39,342 nt of DNA from the sequence record OL362275.1; one strand, 5' to 3'. Each line of letters starts with the position of its first letter. The stretch's first letter is position 1. Positions 10,532 through 29,631 of the stretch are shown here, one piece after another. Source of the DNA: Escherichia phage HC12. The notes beneath the pieces are model-generated. The model did no database searches and had not been told where the DNA came from. It was given only the letters and a program-made list of their open reading frames with translations. A program made the translations under genes and the position numbers.

Positions 10532-10979
10532 GGTACAGTTCAATCCACGGTCCCGGACCGACGCTATCTTCGTACACTGTTCGGCTACCAAGCCAGAGAT
10601 GGACATCGGGGTAGAGACCATCCGTATGTGGCACAAGCAGCAAGGCTGGCTGGACGTAGGCTACCACTTTATCATCAAGCGCGATGGCACTGTGGAAGAG
10701 GGACGCCCGGTCAATGTCGTAGGGTCACACGTTAAGGACTGGAACTCACGGTCTGTAGGCGTCTGCCTTGTAGGTGGAATTGACGCTAAGGGCAAGTTTG
10801 AAGCTAACTTCACTCCGGCCCAGATGAACTCCCTGCGCAACAAGCTGGCTGACCTGAAGGACTTGTATCCTCAGGCAGAAATCAAATCACATCATGACGT
10901 AGCACCAAAGGCGTGTCCAAGTTTCGACTTGCAACGCTGGCTGTCTACCAATGAACTGGTCACTTCCGACCGAGGCTAA
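10521..10979 (+). CDS. 3.5: N-acetylmuramoyl-L-alanine amidase (T7 lysozyme)
   Basis: 152 aa, near-colinear with T7 gp3.5: TDAIFVHCSATKP, GWLDVGYHFIIKRDGTVE, HHDVAPKACPSFDL, C-terminal ELVTSDRG. Confidence 0.95.
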   Translation: MVSKVQFNPRSRTDAIFVHCSATKPEMDIGVETIRMWHKQQGWLDVGYHFIIKRDGTVEEGRPVNVVGSHVKDWNSRSVGVCLVGGIDAKGKFEANFTPAQMNSLRNKLADLKDLYPQAEIKSHHDVAPKACPSFDLQRWLSTNELVTSDRG

Positions 10980-10997
10980 ACTATCACCGTAGGGATG
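10975..10997 (+). promoter_or_regulatory. Phage RNA polymerase promoter, variant CACCGTAGGG core
   Basis: GCTAAACTATCACCGTAGGGATG; two core substitutions relative to the consensus. Confidence 0.55.
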
Positions 10998-11042: not shown

Positions 11043-11121
11043 GTCTCCATAGCTCAAACGGTAGAGCGGCGGGTCGTGATGGCCTATTGCGATTAGGGTT
11101 CGAATCCCCGTGGAGACGCCA
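11043..11121 (+). tRNA. tRNA-like element (canonical acceptor, D and T arms, encoded CCA; anticodon arm non-canonical)
   Basis: GTCTCCA...TGGAGAC perfect 7-bp acceptor stem. D arm GCTC-AAACGGTA-GAGC with G18G19. T arm with GGTTCGAATCC. Discriminator G then CCA. The 26 nt between the D and T arms do not form a clean 5-bp anticodon stem; best fold gives loop GTCGTGA (anticodon CGU, Thr) with an imperfect stem. Confidence 0.45.
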
Positions 11122-11132
11122 CTAAGGAGTGA

Positions 11133-12836
<1,704 letters not shown>

Positions 12837-13106: not shown

Positions 13107-15278
13107 ATGTTTGACCTTAAGAGTATCTGGGGTTCTGACATCGAGACCAACGGTCTCCTTGATACAGTCTCCCAGTTTCACTGTGGGGTCCTGATTAACG
13201 CCGAGTCGAATGAGACCCTTAAGTATGGGGTAGCTCCGATGGTCGGTATCGTCGGTGGCTTCAAAGAGTATGTGCAGAAGGTGGAAGAGATTGCCGCATC
13301 ACCTGATGGTATGCTGGTATTCCACAACGGTATCAACTATGACGTCCCGGCTATTGACAAGCTGAAGCGTCTGTACTTCGGGAAACGCTTTAACTTCCCG
13401 AAACACAAGATGATTGATACCTTGGTGCTGGGTCGCTTGATGTATCCCAACATTAAGTTCTCAGACATGGGCGCGGTGAAAGCTGGTCGTCTGCCTCCTA
13501 AGATGATGGGACGCCAGTCTCTTGAGGCTTGGGGTTATCGTCTCGGTGAGATGAAGGGTGAGTACAAACACGATTACGTTGCCAAGTGCAAGGCAGAAGG
13601 TATCGAATATAAGGCTGGGGACGAATGGTTGTTCCCGTCTCAGGAGATGCTGGACTATAACGTTCAGGACGTTGTGGTCACACTGGCGTTGTTCAAGAAG
13701 TTCCTGACTGACAAGTATTACTTCCAGTCTGAACAGTTCGCTTTCGACCAGATTTATGCGTTGCGTCTGGAACATGATGCTGCGTGGACCTGTGCGAAGA
13801 TGGAACGTAACGGCTATCCGATGAACACCGAGATGGTCGAAGGTTTATATCGTGAACTCACCGTCAAACGTGCAGAGCTGTTGGACAAGCTGCGTTCGAC
13901 TTTCGGCAGCTGGTACGCACCAAAGGGAGGCAAGGAGTTCTTCAAGCACCCACGGACAGGCAAGGACCTTCCGAAGTATCCGCGAGTCGTGTATCCTAAG
14001 GTCGGGTCAGTATTCAAGAAGCCGAAGAACAAAGCTCAACGCTTAGGTCTGGAGCCTTGCGAGTTCGACTCACGAGACACGATGGAAGGAGCACCGTTCA
14101 CGCCAATCACTTACGTTGAGTTTAATCCGGGAAGCGGAGACCACTTAGCGAAAGTCTTGATGGAGCGTGGTTGGGAGCCTGTGGACTTCACTGACACTGG
14201 GAAACCTGTAGTCGATGACGAGACGTTAGAACACGTTAAGCTACCAGACGCAGAGGCTCAGGCTTGCGTAGAGCTGGTCCGTGAGTATCTGGTAGTCCAG
14301 AAGCGCATCGGTCAGGCGGCTGAAGGTAAGAACGCATGGTTGAAACTTGTAGGTCCAGACGGACGTATGCACGGCTCAATAAACCCATGCGGGGCAGTAA
14401 CCGGACGTGCGACCCATAGTTCACCAAACATGGCTCAGGTACCTGCTAACGGTGCTCCGTATGGTGAGACTTGCCGTGGTGCTTTCGGTGCAGCGTGGAA
14501 CAAGAAGGACGGCAAGCCAGACCCTTGGATTCAAGTTGGTGTGGATGCCTCAGGTCTTGAGCTTCGTTGTCTTGGGAACAGAGCGGCTCCGTTTGATGGT
14601 GGTGCCTATGCGAAGACTGTGGTCGAAGGTGACATCCACTGGGCCAACGCAGTAAACGCTGGGTTAGCACCTAACGTCCAACGCGATAAGTCTAACCACG
14701 ACCATGAGGCTTTCCGTAACAACGCTAAGACGTTCATCTACGCGTTCCTGTATGGTGCAGGGGCCGCTAAGATTGGACTGATAGTAGGCGGTGGTAAGAA
14801 GGAAGGTTCAGCGCTCATGAAGAAATTCATTGAGGGTACACCAGCTATCAAGGACCTCAGGGAAGCTGTGCAGAACACGCTCATCTCTGAGTCCAAATGG
14901 GTAGACGGTGAGAACATCGTGAAGTGGAAACGCCGCTGGCTGAAAGGTCTGGACGGTCGACGCATCCACATCCGGTCGCCACACTCAGCACTGAACGCCT
15001 TACTTCAAGGTGATGGTGCGGTAGTCTGTAAGCACTGGATTGTTGAGACTGAACGTATGCTTGAAGCCGAAGGATATGTCCACGGCTGGGATGGAGACTT
15101 TGCGTACATGGCATGGGTGCACGATGAGCTACAAATTGCCTGTAAAAACAAGGACTTAGCAGAACGCGTAGTAGAAATTGCTCAACTTGCTATGCGTAAG
15201 GTTGGTGAGTTCTATAACTTTAAATGTGTGTTAGACACGGAGGGTAAAATTGGACCAACGTGGAAAGAATGCCATTGA
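13107..15278 (+). CDS. 5: DNA polymerase (family A, T7-type)
   Basis: Colinear with T7 gp5: exo motif DIETNGL, FHNGINYDVPA, pol motifs GRATHSSPNMAQVP and VHDELQ. Start set to ATG 13107 (GGAGGA RBS); the track start at 13071 is GTG inside the hairpin. Confidence 0.97.
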   Translation: MFDLKSIWGSDIETNGLLDTVSQFHCGVLINAESNETLKYGVAPMVGIVGGFKEYVQKVEEIAASPDGMLVFHNGINYDVPAIDKLKRLYFGKRFNFPKHKMIDTLVLGRLMYPNIKFSDMGAVKAGRLPPKMMGRQSLEAWGYRLGEMKGEYKHDYVAKCKAEGIEYKAGDEWLFPSQEMLDYNVQDVVVTLALFKKFLTDKYYFQSEQFAFDQIYALRLEHDAAWTCAKMERNGYPMNTEMVEGLYRELTVKRAELLDKLRSTFGSWYAPKGGKEFFKHPRTGKDLPKYPRVVYPKVGSVFKKPKNKAQRLGLEPCEFDSRDTMEGAPFTPITYVEFNPGSGDHLAKVLMERGWEPVDFTDTGKPVVDDETLEHVKLPDAEAQACVELVREYLVVQKRIGQAAEGKNAWLKLVGPDGRMHGSINPCGAVTGRATHSSPNMAQVPANGAPYGETCRGAFGAAWNKKDGKPDPWIQVGVDASGLELRCLGNRAAPFDGGAYAKTVVEGDIHWANAVNAGLAPNVQRDKSNHDHEAFRNNAKTFIYAFLYGAGAAKIGLIVGGGKKEGSALMKKFIEGTPAIKDLREAVQNTLISESKWVDGENIVKWKRRWLKGLDGRRIHIRSPHSALNALLQGDGAVVCKHWIVETERMLEAEGYVHGWDGDFAYMAWVHDELQIACKNKDLAERVVEIAQLAMRKVGEFYNFKCVLDTEGKIGPTWKECH

Positions 15279-15666
15279 CGGAAAGTCCCTGCATTATACA
15301 GGTGCTGCGAGCGAGTTGTATGCGAGCTACCGACTGACGGCTATGGGACACCAAGTCTTCCTACCTGCGTTCACCCAGTCCAAAGCGGACTTAGTGGTGG
15401 ATATCAACGGGACCCTTATGAGGGTTCAGGTGAAAACTGGGACCAAGCTGAAGAACTGTAATAGCATTCAGGTCCGGCTTGGTGGGTGCGGTAAGCCAAC
15501 TTACAGTCCTGGAGACATCGACCTACTAGCGGTTGTCTATCAGGATTTGCTCTGGCTTATACCGTTCACTGAAGAGGTTAGAGTCAAGACCTCTATGTGT
15601 ATAAACTTAACGTCTGACAAGAAGTACGGACAATTTAAACAGGAGAAGACTAATGGCTATTACTAA
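15250..15666 (+). CDS. Hypothetical protein, possible PD-(D/E)xK-like nuclease fold
   Basis: 138-aa ORF overlapping the last 29 nt of gene 5. TTG start with GGAGGG RBS (alternative internal ATG at 15343). Segment ADLVVDINGTLMRVQVKTG resembles the D...(E/Q)xK core of Hjc-type resolvases; weak by-eye inference. Confidence 0.5.
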   Translation: MDQRGKNAIDGKSLHYTGAASELYASYRLTAMGHQVFLPAFTQSKADLVVDINGTLMRVQVKTGTKLKNCNSIQVRLGGCGKPTYSPGDIDLLAVVYQDLLWLIPFTEEVRVKTSMCINLTSDKKYGQFKQEKTNGYY

Positions 15667-21005: not shown

Positions 21006-21028
21006 ACTAAACTATCACTATAGGGAGA
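21006..21028 (+). promoter_or_regulatory. Phage RNA polymerase promoter (phi10-like), full consensus ending GGGAGA
   Basis: ACTAAACTATCACTATAGGGAGA, best copy of the family, upstream of the major capsid gene. Confidence 0.8.
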
Positions 21029-21130
21029 CCAAGAGAAAGACTCAAGGTTTCCCTATTACTTCAGTCCATACGGATTGGGCGTACAGCAAGTAATAAACTT
21101 TATCTTTCAATTGAATAGGAGAATTATCAT

Positions 21131-22180
21131 ATGGCAAACGTTCCGGGTCAGAAAGTTGGTACAGACCAAGGTAAAGGCAAATCTGGTTCCGACGCTCTGG
21201 CGTTGTTCCTGAAGGTCTTTGCTGGCGAAGTCCTGACAGCATTCACTCGCCGCTCTGTAACTGCTGACAAGCATATTGTCCGTACCATTCAGAACGGTAA
21301 GTCTGCTCAGTTCCCGGTCATGGGTCGCACCTCTGGTGTGTATCTGGCTCCGGGTGAGCGACTGTCCGATAAGCGTAAAGGTATCAAACATACCGAGAAA
21401 GTGATTACCATTGATGGTCTGCTGACTGCCGATGTGATGATTTTCGACATTGAAGACGCGATGAACCACTATGACGTGGCTGGCGAGTACTCCAACCAGT
21501 TGGGCGAAGCTCTGGCTATCGCTGCCGATGGTGCGGTACTGGCTGAGATGGCTATTCTGTGTAACCTACCGGCTGCATCTGATGAAAACATCGCTGGTCT
21601 TGGCAAAGCGTCTGTGCTGGAAGTTGGTACTAAAGCAGACCTGAACACTCCGGCTAAGCTGGGTGAAGCAATCATCGGTCAACTGACCATTGCTCGTGCG
21701 AAGCTGACATCCAACTACGTTCCTGCTGGCGACCGTTACTTCTACACCACGCCGGACAACTACTCTGCAATCCTCGCGGCTCTGATGCCGAACGCTGCTA
21801 ACTATGCTGCGCTGATTGACCCAGAGACTGGTAACATCCGTAACGTAATGGGCTTCGTGGTTGTTGAAGTCCCACACTTGACTCAGGGTGGTGCTGGGGA
21901 AACTCGTGGTGCCGATGGTATCACTATTGCGACTGGTCAGAAGCACGCCTTCCCAGCTACTGCTACTGGTGATGTTAAAGTTGCTCTGGACAACGTTGTG
22001 GGCCTGTTCTCTCACCGTTCTGCTGTAGGTACTGTTAAGCTGCGTGACTTGGCGCTGGAACGTGACCGTGACGTCGATGCTCAGGGCGACCTGATTGTTG
22101 GTAAGTACGCTATGGGTCACGGTGGTCTGCGTCCAGAAGCAGCAGGCGCACTGGTTTTCAGCCCAGCAGCAGCGGGTTAA
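21131..22180 (+). CDS. 10A: Major capsid protein
   Basis: 349 aa, colinear with T7 gp10A: LALFLKVFAGEVLTAF, HTEKVITIDGLLTADV, MPNAANYAALIDPE, KLRDLALER, AMGHGGLRPEAAG. Confidence 0.97.
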   Translation: MANVPGQKVGTDQGKGKSGSDALALFLKVFAGEVLTAFTRRSVTADKHIVRTIQNGKSAQFPVMGRTSGVYLAPGERLSDKRKGIKHTEKVITIDGLLTADVMIFDIEDAMNHYDVAGEYSNQLGEALAIAADGAVLAEMAILCNLPAASDENIAGLGKASVLEVGTKADLNTPAKLGEAIIGQLTIARAKLTSNYVPAGDRYFYTTPDNYSAILAALMPNAANYAALIDPETGNIRNVMGFVVVEVPHLTQGGAGETRGADGITIATGQKHAFPATATGDVKVALDNVVGLFSHRSAVGTVKLRDLALERDRDVDAQGDLIVGKYAMGHGGLRPEAAGALVFSPAAAG

Positions 22181-22443
22181 TGACCTTCAGGACTCTCTCT
22201 ACTGAGGGTCCTACCTTTGAAACCTTGGAGTCCTCAGTTGGTGTCAGTCTTAAGGTTGACTTCCCTGAGCTGGCAGATGTGACCGACTGGTCTCTGCTGG
22301 ATGTAACCATGCCGGATGGTGTGAGCTACTCTCGTAGAACTTCAAGTCTCTACTTCAAGGCCACCGATGCTGTGACAGGTCTTGTAACTGTTGGATATGA
22401 CGGGTCTACCGTTGGGTCATTCAACGTTTCGTTCACAAACTAA
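21131..22443 (+). CDS. 10B: Minor capsid protein 10B, predicted product of a -1 programmed frameshift near the end of 10A
   Basis: The -1 frame is open from 22105 to 22443 and overlaps the 10A terminus. G GTT TTC at 22153-22159 is the same heptamer as at the T7 10A/10B frameshift site. Confidence 0.5.
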
Positions 22444-22446
22444 TTG

Positions 22447-22487
22447 AAACCCCTTGGGTGCCTTCGGGTGCTTGAGGGGTTTTTTGC
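22447..22487 (+). terminator. Tphi-like intrinsic terminator
   Basis: AACCCCTTGGGTGCC-TTCG-GGTGCTTGAGGGGTT followed by TTTTTTG; close to the T7 Tphi terminator sequence. Confidence 0.85.
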
Positions 22488-22504
22488 TTAAAGTGAGGAT
22501 GATT

Positions 22505-22594
22505 ATGTTTTACTTACTTACAGCCTTGGGACTATTTGTTAGTTTCTGGGCGATTATATTATTAACCGGACCATGCAGTCCTTACGACAGATAG
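22505..22594 (+). CDS. Hypothetical small hydrophobic peptide (29 aa) downstream of Tphi
   Basis: GTGAGGA RBS 6 nt before ATG. Hand translation MFYLLTALGLFVSFWAIILLTGPCSPYDR. Under 60 aa, so absent from the track. Confidence 0.4.
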   Translation: MFYLLTALGLFVSFWAIILLTGPCSPYDR

Positions 22595-22602
22595 GAGGGA
22601 GT

Positions 22603-23169
22603 ATGGCTCAATACATTCCACTGAATGCTAACGATGACTTAGACGCTATCAACGATATGTTGGCTGCTATCGGTGAACCAGCAGTCCTACAACTTGACGA
22701 GGGGAACGCTGACGTCTCGAACGCTCAACGCATCCTGCATCGTGTCAATCGTCAGGTCCAAGCTAAAGGCTGGAACTTTAACATCAACGAAGCTGCTGTC
22801 CTGACACCTGATGTCCAAGACAATAGGATTCGATTCTTGCCGTCATACCTTCGCGTAATGACCGCTGGGGCCACCAGCTACTACAGTAACATGGGCGGAT
22901 ACCTGTACGACCTATCCACTCAGTCAACCACTTTCACCGACCCTATCACGGTAGAGCTTGTGGAGATGAAGCCATTCTCCGAGATGCCTGTGGTCTTCAG
23001 GGACTACATCGTTACCAAGGCTAGCCGTGAGTTCAACGCTAAGTTCTTCGGTAGCCCAGAGTCTGAACTGTACCTTCGTGAGCAGGAAGCAGAACTCTAC
23101 CAGCAGGTCATGGAATACGAGATGGATACTGGTCGCTACAACATGATGTCTGACATCGGGAGGGACTAA
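22603..23169 (+). CDS. 11: Tail tubular protein A
   Basis: Colinear with T7 gp11: DDLDAINDMLAAIGEP, RGWNFNI, YIVTKASREFNAKFFGSPE, MEYEMD. Start at ATG 22603 with GGAGGG RBS. Confidence 0.95.
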   Translation: MAQYIPLNANDDLDAINDMLAAIGEPAVLQLDEGNADVSNAQRILHRVNRQVQAKGWNFNINEAAVLTPDVQDNRIRFLPSYLRVMTAGATSYYSNMGGYLYDLSTQSTTFTDPITVELVEMKPFSEMPVVFRDYIVTKASREFNAKFFGSPESELYLREQEAELYQQVMEYEMDTGRYNMMSDIGRD

Positions 23170-23396
23170 TGGCTAGTCACAACCTGAAGATTCACCGCCA
23201 GCACTTTGGTCCGGTACAACTAGGTCTAAAGACAGCAGAGCTGAGACTTAACGACCGGGACTTTAAGGTTGGCGACTGGCTTATCCTGAATGAGTGGGAC
23301 AACGGGTATACTGGACAACAGGTAGCACGTAAGGTTGTCCACATTGCTGACGTTGGTGACATCGCTGAGGGATACGTCCTAATGAGTATGATTTAA
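23169..23396 (+). CDS. Small PUA/ASCH-like protein inserted between genes 11 and 12
   Basis: 75 aa MASHNLKIHRQHFGPVQLGLKTAELRLNDRDFKVGDWLILNEW...; the K.H...F......K..E.R.NDRDF.VGD.L.L.E pattern matches, from memory, small phage PUA-like domain proteins. TAATG coupling to gene 11. Confidence 0.65.
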   Translation: MASHNLKIHRQHFGPVQLGLKTAELRLNDRDFKVGDWLILNEWDNGYTGQQVARKVVHIADVGDIAEGYVLMSMI

Positions 23397-23405
23397 GGAG
23401 GGCAT

Positions 23406-25763
23406 ATGCCGCTTATTACGCAAAGCATAAAAAATCTTAAGGGTGGCATTAGCCAACAGCCTGACATCCTGAGGTTCTCAGACCAAGGCGAGGCCCAAGT
23501 TAACTGCTGGTCATCCGAGAGTGATGGCCTCCAGAAGCGTCCACCTACAGTCTTCAAGAGACGTATTAACATCGACGTTGGGAGCAACCCTAAGTTCCAC
23601 CTGATTAACCGTGACGAGCATGAGCAGTATTACATCGTGTTCAACGGGTCAAACATTCAGGTAGTTGACTTGAGTGGTAATCAATACTCAGTTTCCGGTG
23701 CGGTAGATTACGTTAAGTCGTCCAACCCGCGAGATGACATCCGTGTCGTTACTGTTGCAGACTATACGTTCATCGTGAACCGTAAGGTTGTCGTTAAAGG
23801 TGGAAGCGAGAAGTCACACTCTGGTTATAACCGCAAAGCACGAGCTTTAATTAACCTGCGTGGCGGACAGTATGGTCGAACCCTTAAGGTGGGAATCAAC
23901 GGTGGCGTTAAGGTCTCGCATAAGCTACCAGCAGGTAATGATGCCGAGAATGACCCACCTAAGGTGGACGCTCAAGCCATCGGTTCAGCTCTGAGAGACC
24001 TTCTTGTTGCTGCTTACCCTACCTTCACGTTCGACCTTGGGTCTGGATTCCTGTTAATCACTGCCCCTTCAGGGACTGACATTAACTCAGTGGAGACGGA
24101 GGATGGCTATGCTAACCAGCTAATCAGCCCAGTACTCGACACGGTGCAAACAATCTCTAAGTTGCCTCTTGCAGCTCCAAATGGGTACATCATTAAGATT
24201 CAAGGTGAGACCAACAGTAGCGCCGATGAATATTACGTGATGTATGACTCCAACACTAAGACGTGGAAGGAGACAGTAGAGCCGGGAGTGGTCACTGGGT
24301 TCGATAACACCACAATGCCTCATGCTCTGGTGAGACAATCTGACGGCTCCTTTGAGTTCAAGACTCTGGACTGGTCTAATCGTGGTGCTGGTAATGATGA
24401 CACAAACCCTATGCCTAGCTTCGTGGATGCTACGATTAACGATGTGTTCTTCTACAGGAATAGGCTGGGGTTCTTGTCAGGCGAGAACGTAATCATGAGC
24501 CGTTCAGCCAGCTACTTTGCGTTCTTCCCTAAGAGTGTGGCTACACTGAGTGATGATGATCCTATTGACGTAGCTGTAAGTCATCCTAGAATCTCAATCC
24601 TTAAGTATGCCGTTCCGTTTAGCGAGCAGCTACTACTTTGGTCGGATGAGGTGCAGTTCGTGATGACAAGCTCTGGGGTCCTTACCTCGAAGTCTATCCA
24701 GCTTGATGTAGGCTCAGAGTTTGCCCTAGGTGACAATGCCAGACCGTTCGCTGTAGGACGCTCAGTCTTCTTCTCAGCACCTCGTGGGTCATTCACCAGC
24801 ATTAAGAGATACTTCGCTGTAGCAGATGTGTCTGACGTGAAGGATGCCGATGATACCACTGGACACGTACTGTCCTATATCCCTAACGGGGTGTTTGACA
24901 TTCAAGGTACAGGGACTGAGAACTACATCTGCGTCAACTCTACAGGTGCATACAACCGAATCTACATCTACAAGTTCTTGTTTAAGGACGGCGTACAGCT
25001 TCAAGCCTCTTGGTCACACTGGGAGTTCCCTAAAGATGATAAGATTCTGGCGTCTGCTTCTATTGGCTCTACCATGTTCATCGTTCGTCAGCACCAAGGC
25101 GGAGTGGACCTTGAGCACCTTAAGTTCATCAAAGAGGCGACTGACTTTCCGTCAGAGCCGTATAGACTCCACGTTGACTCCAAGGTGTCTATGGTCATCC
25201 CAATTGGCTCGTTTAATGCTGACACATATAAGACTACGGTTGACATTGGTGCTGCTTATGGTGGTAATGCCCCGTCTCCCGGTCGGTACTATCTGATTGA
25301 CAGTCAGGGTGCTTATTTGGACCTTGGGGACTTGACCAGTATCTCTACTGTGATTACCCTCAACGGCGATTGGTCAGGACGTACAGTGTTCATCGGGCGG
25401 TCCTATCTGATGTCCTACAAGTTCTCACGGTTCCTGATTAAGATTGAAGATGATAGTGGCACCCAGTCTGAAGACACTGGTCGTCTACAGCTTCGTCGGG
25501 CTTGGGTCAACTACAAGGACACTGGAGCTCTGAGACTCATTGTCAGAAACGGTGAGCGAGAGTTCGTTAACACCTTTAATGGGTACACCCTTGGTCAGCA
25601 GACCATAGGGACTACTAACATTGGTGACGGGCAGTATCGCTTCGCTATGAATGGTAACGCATTGACCACGAGTCTAACCTTAGAGTCCGACTATCCTACC
25701 CCGGTGTCCATCGTTGGGTGTGGCTGGGAGGCGTCATACGCTAAGAAAGCTCGTTCCGTCTAA
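23406..25763 (+). CDS. 12: Tail tubular protein B
   Basis: 785 aa, colinear with T7 gp12: SQSIKNLKGGISQQPDILR, INRDEHEQYY, FFYRNRLGFLSGENVI, DDDPIDVAVS, GRLQLRRAWVNY, GCGWE. Confidence 0.97.
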   Translation: MPLITQSIKNLKGGISQQPDILRFSDQGEAQVNCWSSESDGLQKRPPTVFKRRINIDVGSNPKFHLINRDEHEQYYIVFNGSNIQVVDLSGNQYSVSGAVDYVKSSNPRDDIRVVTVADYTFIVNRKVVVKGGSEKSHSGYNRKARALINLRGGQYGRTLKVGINGGVKVSHKLPAGNDAENDPPKVDAQAIGSALRDLLVAAYPTFTFDLGSGFLLITAPSGTDINSVETEDGYANQLISPVLDTVQTISKLPLAAPNGYIIKIQGETNSSADEYYVMYDSNTKTWKETVEPGVVTGFDNTTMPHALVRQSDGSFEFKTLDWSNRGAGNDDTNPMPSFVDATINDVFFYRNRLGFLSGENVIMSRSASYFAFFPKSVATLSDDDPIDVAVSHPRISILKYAVPFSEQLLLWSDEVQFVMTSSGVLTSKSIQLDVGSEFALGDNARPFAVGRSVFFSAPRGSFTSIKRYFAVADVSDVKDADDTTGHVLSYIPNGVFDIQGTGTENYICVNSTGAYNRIYIYKFLFKDGVQLQASWSHWEFPKDDKILASASIGSTMFIVRQHQGGVDLEHLKFIKEATDFPSEPYRLHVDSKVSMVIPIGSFNADTYKTTVDIGAAYGGNAPSPGRYYLIDSQGAYLDLGDLTSISTVITLNGDWSGRTVFIGRSYLMSYKFSRFLIKIEDDSGTQSEDTGRLQLRRAWVNYKDTGALRLIVRNGEREFVNTFNGYTLGQQTIGTTNIGDGQYRFAMNGNALTTSLTLESDYPTPVSIVGCGWEASYAKKARSV

Positions 25764-25787
25764 CTTATTGAAGGGCCTATAGATTTA

Positions 25788-25810
25788 CCTTAACTATCAC
25801 TATAGGGACT
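25788..25810 (+). promoter_or_regulatory. Phage RNA polymerase promoter (phi13-like) flanked by a 12-bp inverted repeat
   Basis: CCTTAACTATCACTATAGGGACT. AAGGGCCTATAG at 25771-25782 is the exact reverse complement of CTATAGGCCCTT at 25809-25820. Confidence 0.7.
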
Positions 25811-25839: not shown

Positions 25840-26310
25840 ATGTATATTCGCAAGGCTACGGAACAGGATGTCCGCTACTTTCTGTGGCATCTTTCAGCAG
25901 ATGATGTTAATGAGTGCAAAGCAAACTATGGGTCAACCGTTGGTCTCTCTGAAAGACTGCTTAAGCATCTATCTCCGTCATCTGTGGTTTTAACGAATGG
26001 TGTAGGCGAAGTGTTTGCCTATGGTGGAAACCAAGGGGATAACGTATGGTTCTTGACTTCCGGTATTGTCCATAAGCTGAGACCTAAAGAGAAGCGGGAG
26101 TTTATAAAGCGTATCTCTGAGTACAGGGACTTAATGTTAGACCAATACGGGACCATCTGGAACTACGTGTGGTCAGGCAATAAGTCTCACATTAAATTCT
26201 TGAAGTTGCTTGGGGCTAAATTCCATGATGATTGGACTATAAGCCCAGTAACTGGTGATCGTTTTCAACTATTCACTATCTCTAAGGAGGACGTATGTGC
26301 GAGCCAGTAA
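25840..26310 (+). CDS. 13: Gene 13-position protein (internal virion/assembly protein by synteny)
   Basis: 156-aa ORF with AAGGAG RBS directly after the promoter and before gp14. Assignment by position only. Confidence 0.6.
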   Translation: MYIRKATEQDVRYFLWHLSADDVNECKANYGSTVGLSERLLKHLSPSSVVLTNGVGEVFAYGGNQGDNVWFLTSGIVHKLRPKEKREFIKRISEYRDLMLDQYGTIWNYVWSGNKSHIKFLKLLGAKFHDDWTISPVTGDRFQLFTISKEDVCASQ

Positions 26311-26882
26311 GTATCGGCATGGGTATCATGGCTGTAGCCGGGGCCACTATGTCCGCATCTCAACAGGCAAAGGCTGAGGGTGCTGCTATCGACGCTCAGA
26401 ACCGGCAGGCTCAGGAGATGATTAAACAGATGAACTACTCTGACGCCAACCTGAGGATGCAGGAGAGGGACCTGAAGGAGCAGCAGATGGCTGAACTGAC
26501 AGAGACCACGTTAAACGGTATCCGCAATCAGGGTATGGTCAGAGCTGCGGTAGCTGAGTCCGGTCTGGAAGGTAACTCTATGGACAGGATTGAACGTCAG
26601 GTCGAGGGAGACACAGTAAAGGAGAGAGCAGGGATTACCGAAAGCTACAACCGTGACTATGCGGCTATCTTCGGGAACCGTATCGCCAACATTGAGAACA
26701 CCAAGTCTGCTATCCGTGGTCAGGGTAAAATCATCAAGACCAGCCCACTGGCTCATGCACTTAATGTTGCTACCGCCGGGATGCAAGGTTACGCCGCTGG
26801 TAAGTCAATCTCTGGAGCGTCCAGCTCTGGCGGTGCTGCACCAATTAGTGCTGCTAAAGGTACACCTACAGGTCATAGCTAA
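26295..26882 (+). CDS. 14: Internal virion protein B
   Basis: 195 aa; starts MC..., Gln/Ala-rich, EGNSMDRIER aligns with T7 gp14 (EGSSMDRIKR), C-terminal AAKGT.TG. Confidence 0.85.
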   Translation: MCEPVSIGMGIMAVAGATMSASQQAKAEGAAIDAQNRQAQEMIKQMNYSDANLRMQERDLKEQQMAELTETTLNGIRNQGMVRAAVAESGLEGNSMDRIERQVEGDTVKERAGITESYNRDYAAIFGNRIANIENTKSAIRGQGKIIKTSPLAHALNVATAGMQGYAAGKSISGASSSGGAAPISAAKGTPTGHS

Positions 26883-29181: not shown

Positions 29182-29631
29182 ATGAAGAACGGGACAGCCA
29201 GTGAGAGACTGGCAGAACTGTCAGTAGCTGAAGAGTCTGGCTGTATCCGATTCACAGGCCACTTAGACGGAGAAGGATACGGAAGGATAATGGTCAACAG
29301 GGTCAAATACAGAGCGCATAGACTTGCTTACGAGCTTGCTAACGGTCCTATACCCGATGGCTACGTTGTTCGCCATAAGTGCGACAACCCGTCCTGTATA
29401 AACCCAAGCCACCTTGAAGTCGGCACCCAAGCTGATAACATAAAGGATAAGGTGACTAGAGGTCGCCAAGCGTTAGGACGCTTCGTAGGATCGTCTAAGC
29501 TCACTGAGGAAAGTGTGCGTGATATAAGGTCCAGCGACCTAAAGGTTTCACTCTTGGCTGAACGCTATGGAGTGAGTACGGTTTCTATTAGAAATATCTT
29601 GAGGAGAAAGACATGGCGACACGTGGAGTAA
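29182..29631 (+). CDS. HNH homing endonuclease (free-standing), inserted between genes 15 and 16
   Basis: GYGRIMVNRVKYRAHRLAYELANGPIPDGYVVRHKCDNPSCINPSHLEVGTQADN is a classic HNH motif; C-terminal helix-turn-helix-like LAERYGVSTVSIRNILRRK. Overlaps the gene 16 start by 19 nt. Confidence 0.85.
   Translation: MKNGTASERLAELSVAEESGCIRFTGHLDGEGYGRIMVNRVKYRAHRLAYELANGPIPDGYVVRHKCDNPSCINPSHLEVGTQADNIKDKVTRGRQALGRFVGSSKLTEESVRDIRSSDLKVSLLAERYGVSTVSIRNILRRKTWRHVE

Follow-up and report, generated by a model that had tools for sequence, protein, structure and literature searches.

This locus raises the question of why a small open reading frame (ORF) stands between two tail genes that are adjacent in T7, and whether its product has anything to do with the tail. 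The window, that is, the whole stretch of 39,342 nucleotides of Escherichia phage HC12 (OL362275.1) that was analysed, is of the T7-like genus Kayfunavirus (Autographiviridae, Studiervirinae), and the record nearest to it is that of Escherichia phage 6925, with 97.3% identity over 98% of the right 24 kb. The ORF encodes 75 amino acids, with the translation MASHNLKIHRQHFGPVQLGLKTAELRLNDRDFKVGDWLILNEWDNGYTGQQVARKVVHIADVGDIAEGYVLMSMI. Judged from their sequences, the genes that flank it are the homologues of T7 gp11 and gp12 (Table 1); T7 and K1F have the same flanking genes in the same order, but none between genes 11 and 12. We placed the start of gene 11 at the codon that opens MAQYIPLN, which is most probably the correct one rather than the first in-frame ATG at 22573, because the annotation of EcoDS1 and K1F gives a gene 11 of 567 nt.

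The DNA of this locus reads GGGAGGGACTAATGGCT. The stop codon TAA of gene 11 (23167-23169) and the ATG of the ORF (23169-23171) overlap as TAATG, with one base common to both; ahead of this ATG, at a distance of 5 nt and still within gene 11, is a GGAGG core. These coordinates bear out the TAATG overlap of the original prediction, and, by analogy with T7, translation of the ORF would be coupled to that of gene 11. In K1F-type genomes, as seen in the junction alignment, the counterpart of the same GGAGG at the end of gene 11 serves gene 12. At its other end, the stop codon TAA of the ORF (23394-23396) is overlapped by the ribosome-binding site of gene 12, and 9 nt lie between the stop and the gene 12 start.

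Table 1. Features in and around the interval between genes 11 and 12, in coordinates of the window
Feature	Position	Strand	Basis
Phage-RNA-polymerase promoter, phi10 equivalent, before gene 10	21008..21024	+	EcoDS1 promoter core TAAACTATCACTATAGG, 0 mismatches
Intrinsic-terminator-like hairpin and T-run after capsid gene 10, T-phi equivalent	22461..22488	+	Terminator scan
Gene 11, tail tubular protein A (gatekeeper/adaptor)	22603..23169	+	Pfam Tube E 4.2e-46; PHROG 446 'tail protein'
GGAGG ribosome-binding core near the end of, and inside, gene 11; 5 nt ahead of the ATG of the ORF	23159..23163	+	Sequence and junction alignment
75-aa DUF3850/ASCH gene	23169..23396	+	Pfam, PHROG, PDB, AlphaFold2, Foldseek, homologue alignments, dN/dS
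237-bp presence/absence cassette: ORF and 9-nt spacer with a new gene 12 Shine-Dalgarno site	23169..23405	+	Junction comparison
Coding stretch of the octapeptide G19-L-K21-T-A-E24-L-R26	23223-23246	+	Within the 75-aa ORF
AAGGAGG, ribosome-binding site of gene 12, overlapping the ORF stop codon	23395..23401	+	Sequence
Gene 12, tail tubular protein B (nozzle)	23406..25763	+	Pfam Phage_nozzle 1098 bits, E 0; PHROG 457
Next phage promoter, phi13 equivalent, before gene 13	25790..25806	+	Core match; EcoDS1 annotates phi13 at the matching place

The ORF would also share its transcription signals with its neighbours. In the window, 11 copies of the promoter core were counted where chance would give 0.07; upstream of the ORF, the phi10 equivalent is the nearest phage promoter, the core scan of the window found no phage promoter from 21024 to 25790, and the phi13 equivalent marks the downstream limit of the transcription unit that holds gene 11, the ORF and gene 12. 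All three genes lie downstream of the hairpin that follows gene 10, which is matched in position by an annotated terminator of EcoDS1, and they would be transcribed late by read-through; the read-through is taken from T7 biology and the late timing from the promoter positions. The product of the ORF would then be made late, alongside the tail-tube proteins. A scan for sigma-70 promoters and terminators between 22100 and 26000 gave counts no higher than in shuffled sequences and none adjoining the ORF, and a search of the whole window against Rfam gave no match in or near it. The single Rfam match in the window is a tRNA-like element at 11043.

That the ORF is a gene at all is supported by its conservation. 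Among 17 distinct alleles from related phages, the 75-codon frame is kept in every one, and the median pairwise dN/dS is 0.11 (Nei-Gojobori), with values of 0.11-0.15 against the most distant alleles (dS 0.8-2.0). Because of this median, the ORF can be regarded as a coding gene under selection. Its GC content (0.487, against 0.50 in the neighbouring core genes) and codon index (0.686, against 0.683-0.716) were also compared, and the possibility of recognising a foreign origin by composition was rejected, as GC, GC3 and codon index match those of the neighbouring core genes and give no signal. Taking these data with the fold described below, we consider it almost certain that the ORF is a real coding gene with a DUF3850/ASCH fold.

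The gene is also widespread in the genus. The stretch from gene 11 through the ORF to gene 12 is 95-96% identical to those of vB_EcoP_F, EcoDS1, PE3-1, ST31 and many others, and tblastn found 154 phage records with a protein at least 80% identical at the site between genes 11 and 12, several of them 100% identical. The same gene is present in EcoDS1 (YP_002003774, 'unknown product' or 'RNA-binding protein'), PE3-1, ST31, LM33_P1 and vB_EcoP_FFK3 ('DUF3850 domain-containing protein'), at the same position, with the same TAATG coupling, 75 amino acids long and 96-100% identical; compared with these carriers, the window is a distinct isolate whose ORF shows no substantial difference. Existing annotations call the protein 'hypothetical', 'RNA-binding protein', 'DUF3850 domain-containing protein' or 'activating signal cointegrator'. 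The gene is not new: public annotation already has it, together with where it lies and the family to which it is assigned. In all, about 150-180 Kayfunavirus records have the ORF, versus about 50 without it, so that carriers make up about three quarters. The original prediction was right that the ORF lies between genes that are adjacent in T7, but its place there, which had been called unusual, is the ordinary one, since about three quarters of Kayfunavirus records carry the ORF at that site.

Other records of the genus lack the gene. In K1F, PR_Kaz2018 and PhiNW-B1 the ORF is absent and the ATG in the TAATG of gene 11 is the start of gene 12, so that genes 11 and 12 of K1F overlap precisely where the ORF of the window begins; the difference from these three phages is an indel of exactly 237 bp, defined to the base within a 3-nt ATG repeat. 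A second type of junction without the ORF, with an 11-nt spacer, is found in SFP21A, SH3, SH4, SH5, Dev2 and others. Junction-spanning queries counted about 26 records with the uninterrupted K1F-type junction and about 26 with the SFP21A/Dev2 type. Presence of the ORF does not track the similarity of the flanks: those of K1F, which lacks it, are as close to the window (96.5% for gene 11 and 95.7% for gene 12) as those of carriers such as EcoDS1 (97.0% and 92.2%), or closer. Moreover, an endonuclease VII-like gene lies between the ORF and gene 12 in KM02, Hafnia phage Ca/yong1 and B1. Given this presence and absence and the additional endonuclease genes, the junction of gene 11 with gene 12 is a site where insertions are tolerated, and the natural absence of the ORF from close relatives means that it is dispensable for making tails.

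These data bear directly on the idea that the protein is a tail-assembly factor or a minor virion protein acting with gp11 and gp12. The position of the ORF, its coupling to gene 11 and an expression time shared with the tail proteins are all that could suggest such a role. Against it, some 50 Kayfunavirus records do without the gene, including the type phage K1F with flanks 96% identical, so that the position in itself is no evidence for a structural part, and the ORF is not conserved together with gp11 and gp12, being absent from T7, K1F, Dev2, SH3-5, SFP21A, PR_Kaz2018 and PhiNW-B1. In addition, searches with the 75-aa protein found no match to structural PHROG or Pfam families, and its homologues are found among genes for replication and regulation, as described below. 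Published virion proteomics offers little here: for the ORF-bearing phage B1 it covered eight gel bands only, in which even the tail-tube proteins went undetected, and SH3 and SH4, which also have published virion proteomics, carry no ORF. Because of the natural deletions, a structural role is nearly excluded, and we rate it as very improbable. It is very likely that the ORF is both dispensable and not a part of the virion.

The same distribution could be produced by a selfish or hitch-hiking cassette that passes from one co-infecting phage to another by recombination in the conserved genes 11 and 12, or along with homing endonucleases nearby, and brings little benefit to the phage. Presence and absence with exact boundaries, whatever the similarity of the flanks, agree with this, as do the endonuclease VII-like gene directly after the ORF in the three phages named above and the HNH gene that the window has between its genes 15 and 16. 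However, the adjacent endonuclease is missing from most carriers, composition and codon usage are indistinguishable from those of the core neighbours, and purifying selection (dN/dS 0.11) persists at a dS of about 2. The protein itself has no nuclease or mobility domain: in Pfam, where nuclease and recombinase domains were looked for, it matches DUF3850 and ASCH only. Strong purifying selection and the lack of a mobility domain thus make a purely selfish cassette unlikely, and we regard it as an improbable explanation of the locus. The ORF is rather a non-structural accessory gene of the moron type, under selection.

What kind of protein this accessory gene encodes is clear from several comparisons. 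The Pfam family DUF3850 (PF12961) is matched over its full length (residues 4-73 on profile positions 2-76 of 77) with an E-value of 1.9e-19 and 70.1 bits against a cut-off of 22.9, and the ASCH family of the PUA-like clan (PF04266) with an E-value of 1.4e-5 and 26.2 bits against a cut-off of 21.2, the latter profile being covered only at positions 2-61 of 103. The protein also matches PHROG 986 (E 2.8e-35), whose label is 'RNA-binding protein' and whose category is DNA, RNA and nucleotide metabolism. In the PDB it matches 3IUW, with an E-value of 1.2e-10 as a single sequence and 4.6e-19 as a profile; this entry, the one relative with a solved structure, is the structural-genomics structure of an 'activating signal cointegrator' of Enterococcus faecalis V583 (NP_814290, DUF3850), which is 36-39% identical to the phage protein and, like it, has the motifs K-T-x-E-x-R-x-N-D-R and G-D, although it comes from a Gram-positive host. 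An NCBIfam search with the protein gave no match, and the PADLOC defence library gave a single non-significant one (E 0.007, 14 bits).

An AlphaFold2 model built on 22 homologues (mean pLDDT 84) superposes on 3IUW with a TM-score of 0.88 and an rmsd of 1.4 A (Foldseek probability 1.00), followed in the Foldseek order by YqfB (9KYF), YTH domains and then the ASCH proteins 2P5D, 2DP9 and ASC1 (8ALZ). Its elements are E3-9, H10-17, E23-26, E37-43, E47-61 and E69-74, and, set against the description of the ASCH fold in PMC7641849, the model has the fold of this superfamily, with YqfB, YTH and ASCH proteins, all of the PUA-like fold, as its neighbours. Thus the PUA/ASCH resemblance that had been proposed is confirmed by two Pfam families above their gathering scores, by 3IUW and by the model. 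The product belongs to the family DUF3850 and is a minimal ASCH/PUA-like beta-barrel that stands alone.

Within this fold a polar motif is sharply conserved. The ASCH octapeptide G-x-K-x-x-[E/T/S]-x-R, as defined in bioRxiv 10.64898/2026.02.27.708502, is present as G19-L-K21-T-A-E24-L-R26. Across the 22 homologues K21, T22, E24, R26, N28, D29, R30, G35, L40, E42, G49 and S73 are invariant. In a set of 98 distant multidomain homologues, mapped onto the numbering of the 75-aa protein, the invariant residues are H4, K21, E24, R26, D29, R30, D36, L40, G49 and L71; all 98 contained DUF3850 when scanned. Residues 21-30 are the most conserved segment, yet they are the least confident in the model (mean pLDDT 62).

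Searched with the family profile, 1.84 billion cluster representatives yielded 16,078 DUF3850 members at E <= 1e-3, and the phages that carry the domain include, among others, Kagunavirus, Drexlerviridae, P2-like phages (where it adjoins replication gene A) and phages of Listeria, Enterococcus and Clostridium. Outside Kayfunavirus, the nearest relatives, from enterobacterial siphoviruses and small viral contigs, are about 60% identical, and the gene probably came to its place between genes 11 and 12 when Kayfunavirus genomes exchanged DNA with other phages of enterobacteria. In a survey of 121 neighbouring genes at 56 non-T7 viral loci, the commonest neighbour families were the replication protein GPA, N6/N4 and D12 DNA methylases, HTH and sigma-r4 regulators, NinB, NinG, DEAD helicase, HNH and Mu Gam, and no head or tail family was among the top 25. 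Indeed, in siphoviruses, myoviruses and P2-like phages alike, DUF3850 homologues sit in replication and regulation modules. Fusion partners of the domain include DUF551, HTH and dATP/dGTP pyrophosphohydrolase; in the best 98 multidomain homologues the partner is mostly DUF551 or has no Pfam domain, which says little on function. The family thereby belongs to nucleic-acid transactions and not to virion structure, and the position of the gene in the tail module of Kayfunavirus is an accident of insertion.

Within nucleic-acid transactions, the reading that we prefer centres on the octapeptide. Residues G19, K21, E24 and R26, together with H4, N28-D29-R30, D36 and E42, would form a cleft that might take up a base, probably a modified one, flipped out of RNA or DNA. 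K21 and E24 may act as a Lys/Glu dyad, as in ASCH proteins of the 'GKER' type, and this dyad could strip the N4-acetyl group from N4-acetylcytidine (ac4C), in tRNA or as the free nucleoside. Late in infection, this small protein would then read or erase a modified base of the cytosine type in the nucleic acid of the host or of the phage. The proposal draws on recent biochemistry: in a 2026 preprint (bioRxiv 10.64898/2026.02.27.708502), each of the 19 ASCH proteins tested is reported to lower tRNA ac4C, Glu-type GKER proteins included, and TthASCH, EOLA1 and TRIP4 are reported to require the Lys and Glu of their octapeptide. None of the 19 is from a phage or is a DUF3850 protein, and free ac4C was left unhydrolysed by two of the GKER proteins, ZmASCH and TRIP4. 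The 75-aa protein carries the GKER signature, with the Lys and Glu that these deacetylases require present as the invariant K21 and E24. It has both the PUA-like beta-barrel and the GxKxxExR motif in common with the GKER-type proteins TthASCH (2DP9), EOLA1 and the ASCH domain of TRIP4, whereas the assayed proteins are about 100-120 residues or longer with extra helices, the C-terminal helical part is missing from the phage protein, and the model reaches a TM-score of only 0.61 against 2DP9. The literature on DUF3850 and 'gp11.5' mentions the family and reports no functional test of any DUF3850 protein.

Another ASCH enzyme offers an alternative, namely that the protein is an N4-acetylcytidine amidohydrolase of the YqfB type, for nucleoside salvage. 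E. coli YqfB (1TE7, 9KYF) hydrolyses N4-acetylcytidine via Lys21, Thr24, Arg26 and Glu74 (PMC9599836), has the ASCH fold, is the third-best structural match of our model and shares with the phage protein the octapeptide positions Lys21 and Arg26; more widely, G19, K21, T22, R26, F32 and G35-D36 align with G19, K21, T22, R26, F33 and G36-D37 of YqfB. Nevertheless, the phage protein has Glu in the place of Thr24; the two align no further than residue 47 of 75, with an hhalign probability of only 21%, and the C-terminal region that bears Glu74 in YqfB is missing. Two of the four defining residues (Thr24 and Glu74) fail, and this identity was rejected as extremely unlikely.

The main rival to a base-binding enzyme is a non-catalytic reader of methylated DNA. 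Such a protein would bind modified DNA (N6-methyladenine or N4-methylcytosine) or the ends of the phage DNA, and would hydrolyse nothing; its part would be that of a regulator or a shield, for instance against restriction systems that depend on modification. PUA-like domains such as SRA, EVE, YTH and ASCH do read modified bases, and comparative genomics has repeatedly linked ASCH to N6A methylases (PMC4738411, PMC7641849). Near DUF3850 genes elsewhere, our survey likewise found three N6_N4 methylases and one D12 methylase as well as replication proteins, and ParB-CTPase-DUF3850 fusions enriched in prophages have been reported (PMC12704722); these share a phage-enriched domain with the 75-aa protein, which in turn stands alone, without a ParB/ParA partner, in a lytic T7-like genome. 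On the other hand, methylases make up only 4 of the 121 neighbours, no DNA-modification gene adjoins the ORF in the window, and the invariant K21, E24, R26, D29, R30, H4 and E42 resemble a catalytic centre more than a binding surface. A non-catalytic reader is a possibility that we would hold only tentatively.

Returning to the base-binding cleft that we prefer, its parts deserve different degrees of trust. Binding of a nucleic-acid base in the octapeptide cleft is somewhat more probable than not, and the whole explanation, up to and including that binding, stands in our view at an even balance. Specific hydrolysis of ac4C is a good deal less secure and, if anything, unlikely. In E. coli, ac4C occurs at a single site, in elongator tRNA-Met, and a phage would have little obvious benefit from erasing it. 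The methylase and replication neighbourhoods of the family point to DNA at least as much as to RNA. More speculatively still, the 75-aa DUF3850 protein, produced late in infection, might be a minimal phage 'eraser' that removes a cytosine N4-acyl or similar group from host tRNA or RNA, or that reverses a base modification placed by a defence system; we think this doubtful.

To conclude, the feature is an ordinary one for the genus, and the wider question is what DUF3850 does. Among small phage domains it is a very common one; its structure has been solved, its polar motif is sharply conserved, and recent ASCH biochemistry offers a concrete activity for which it can be tested. Kayfunaviruses with and without the clean 237-bp cassette form a natural experimental pair, in an easily engineered T7-like phage. 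If the 'eraser' reading were true, the widespread small DUF3850 proteins would make up a new class of counter-defence or translation-reprogramming enzymes.

Some relatives of HC12 carry an extra endonuclease VII-family gene at the junction of genes 11 and 12, which encode the tail tubular proteins A and B; it lies between the DUF3850 ORF and gene 12 and overlaps the gene 12 start. This gene was found in phage KM02 and also in Hafnia phage Ca/yong1 (ORF37) and Enterobacter phage B1 (ORF41). This junction has therefore received a second insertion. The DUF3850 ORF itself varies in two IMG/VR Kayfunavirus contigs, one allele (L016, 3001-3228) bearing R30L at an otherwise conserved motif residue and the other (L014, 589-816) bearing D31G at a nearly invariant position. 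Each substitution is represented by a single allele and may reflect either an error in sequencing or a rare, relaxed copy of the ORF.

Coordinates of the features in the window and in the KM02 locus (L002)
Feature	Location	Strand	Evidence
tRNA-like gene	window 11043-11121	+	Rfam, ARAGORN
PD-(D/E)XK endonuclease-family ORF, 138 aa	window 15250-15666	+	PDDEXK_5, E 3.4e-10
87-aa ORF, PHROG 7473	window, listed 22180-22443; frame open 22105-22443	+	PHROG match
Genes 13 / 14	window 25840-26310 / 26295-26882		direct overlap
HNH_3 homing-endonuclease ORF, 149 aa	window 29182-29631	+	Pfam, E 2e-17
Endonuclease VII-family gene	L002 2836-3276		Pfam, E 2e-20

Upstream of the junction, gene 11 has a further 10 open codons (22573-22602) 5' of the start at 22603 (MAQYIPLN). 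The corresponding start is used for gene 11 in EcoDS1 and K1F, relatives with and without the DUF3850 ORF, respectively, and counting from the first ATG, which gives 198 aa, probably makes the protein too long. The 87-aa ORF that follows capsid gene 10A had no match in Pfam; it is in the -1 frame relative to 10A, its ATG shares one base with the 10A stop, and this frame is already open within the 3' end of 10A. The annotation of EcoDS1 at the corresponding place reads "region of similarity to gp10B". The arrangement has the look of a T7-style 10B frameshift extension and not of a separate gene.

T7-like phages seldom have tRNA genes. The tRNA-like gene of HC12 is flanked by a phage promoter-like site (10977-10993) on its 5' side and by gene 4 (ATG at 11136) on its 3' side; its Rfam tRNA match scored 36.7 bits, above the gathering threshold, and ARAGORN assigned it to tRNA-Thr(CGT). 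The 166-bp stretch containing it is present in only 35 phage records, among them LM33_P1 with a 100% match, and is labelled tRNA-Thr, labelled pseudo-tRNA or left unannotated, depending on the record.

The window itself carries nuclease-family ORFs. The HNH_3 ORF is an insertion between genes 15 and 16, both for internal virion proteins, and it extends into the start of gene 16; the 3' end of the DNA polymerase gene overlaps with the PDDEXK_5 ORF. In EcoDS1 and Hafnia phage Ca, genes 13 and 14 are separated by an endonuclease VII gene (13.5), whereas the window lacks it; gene 13.5 is another presence/absence difference within the structural module.
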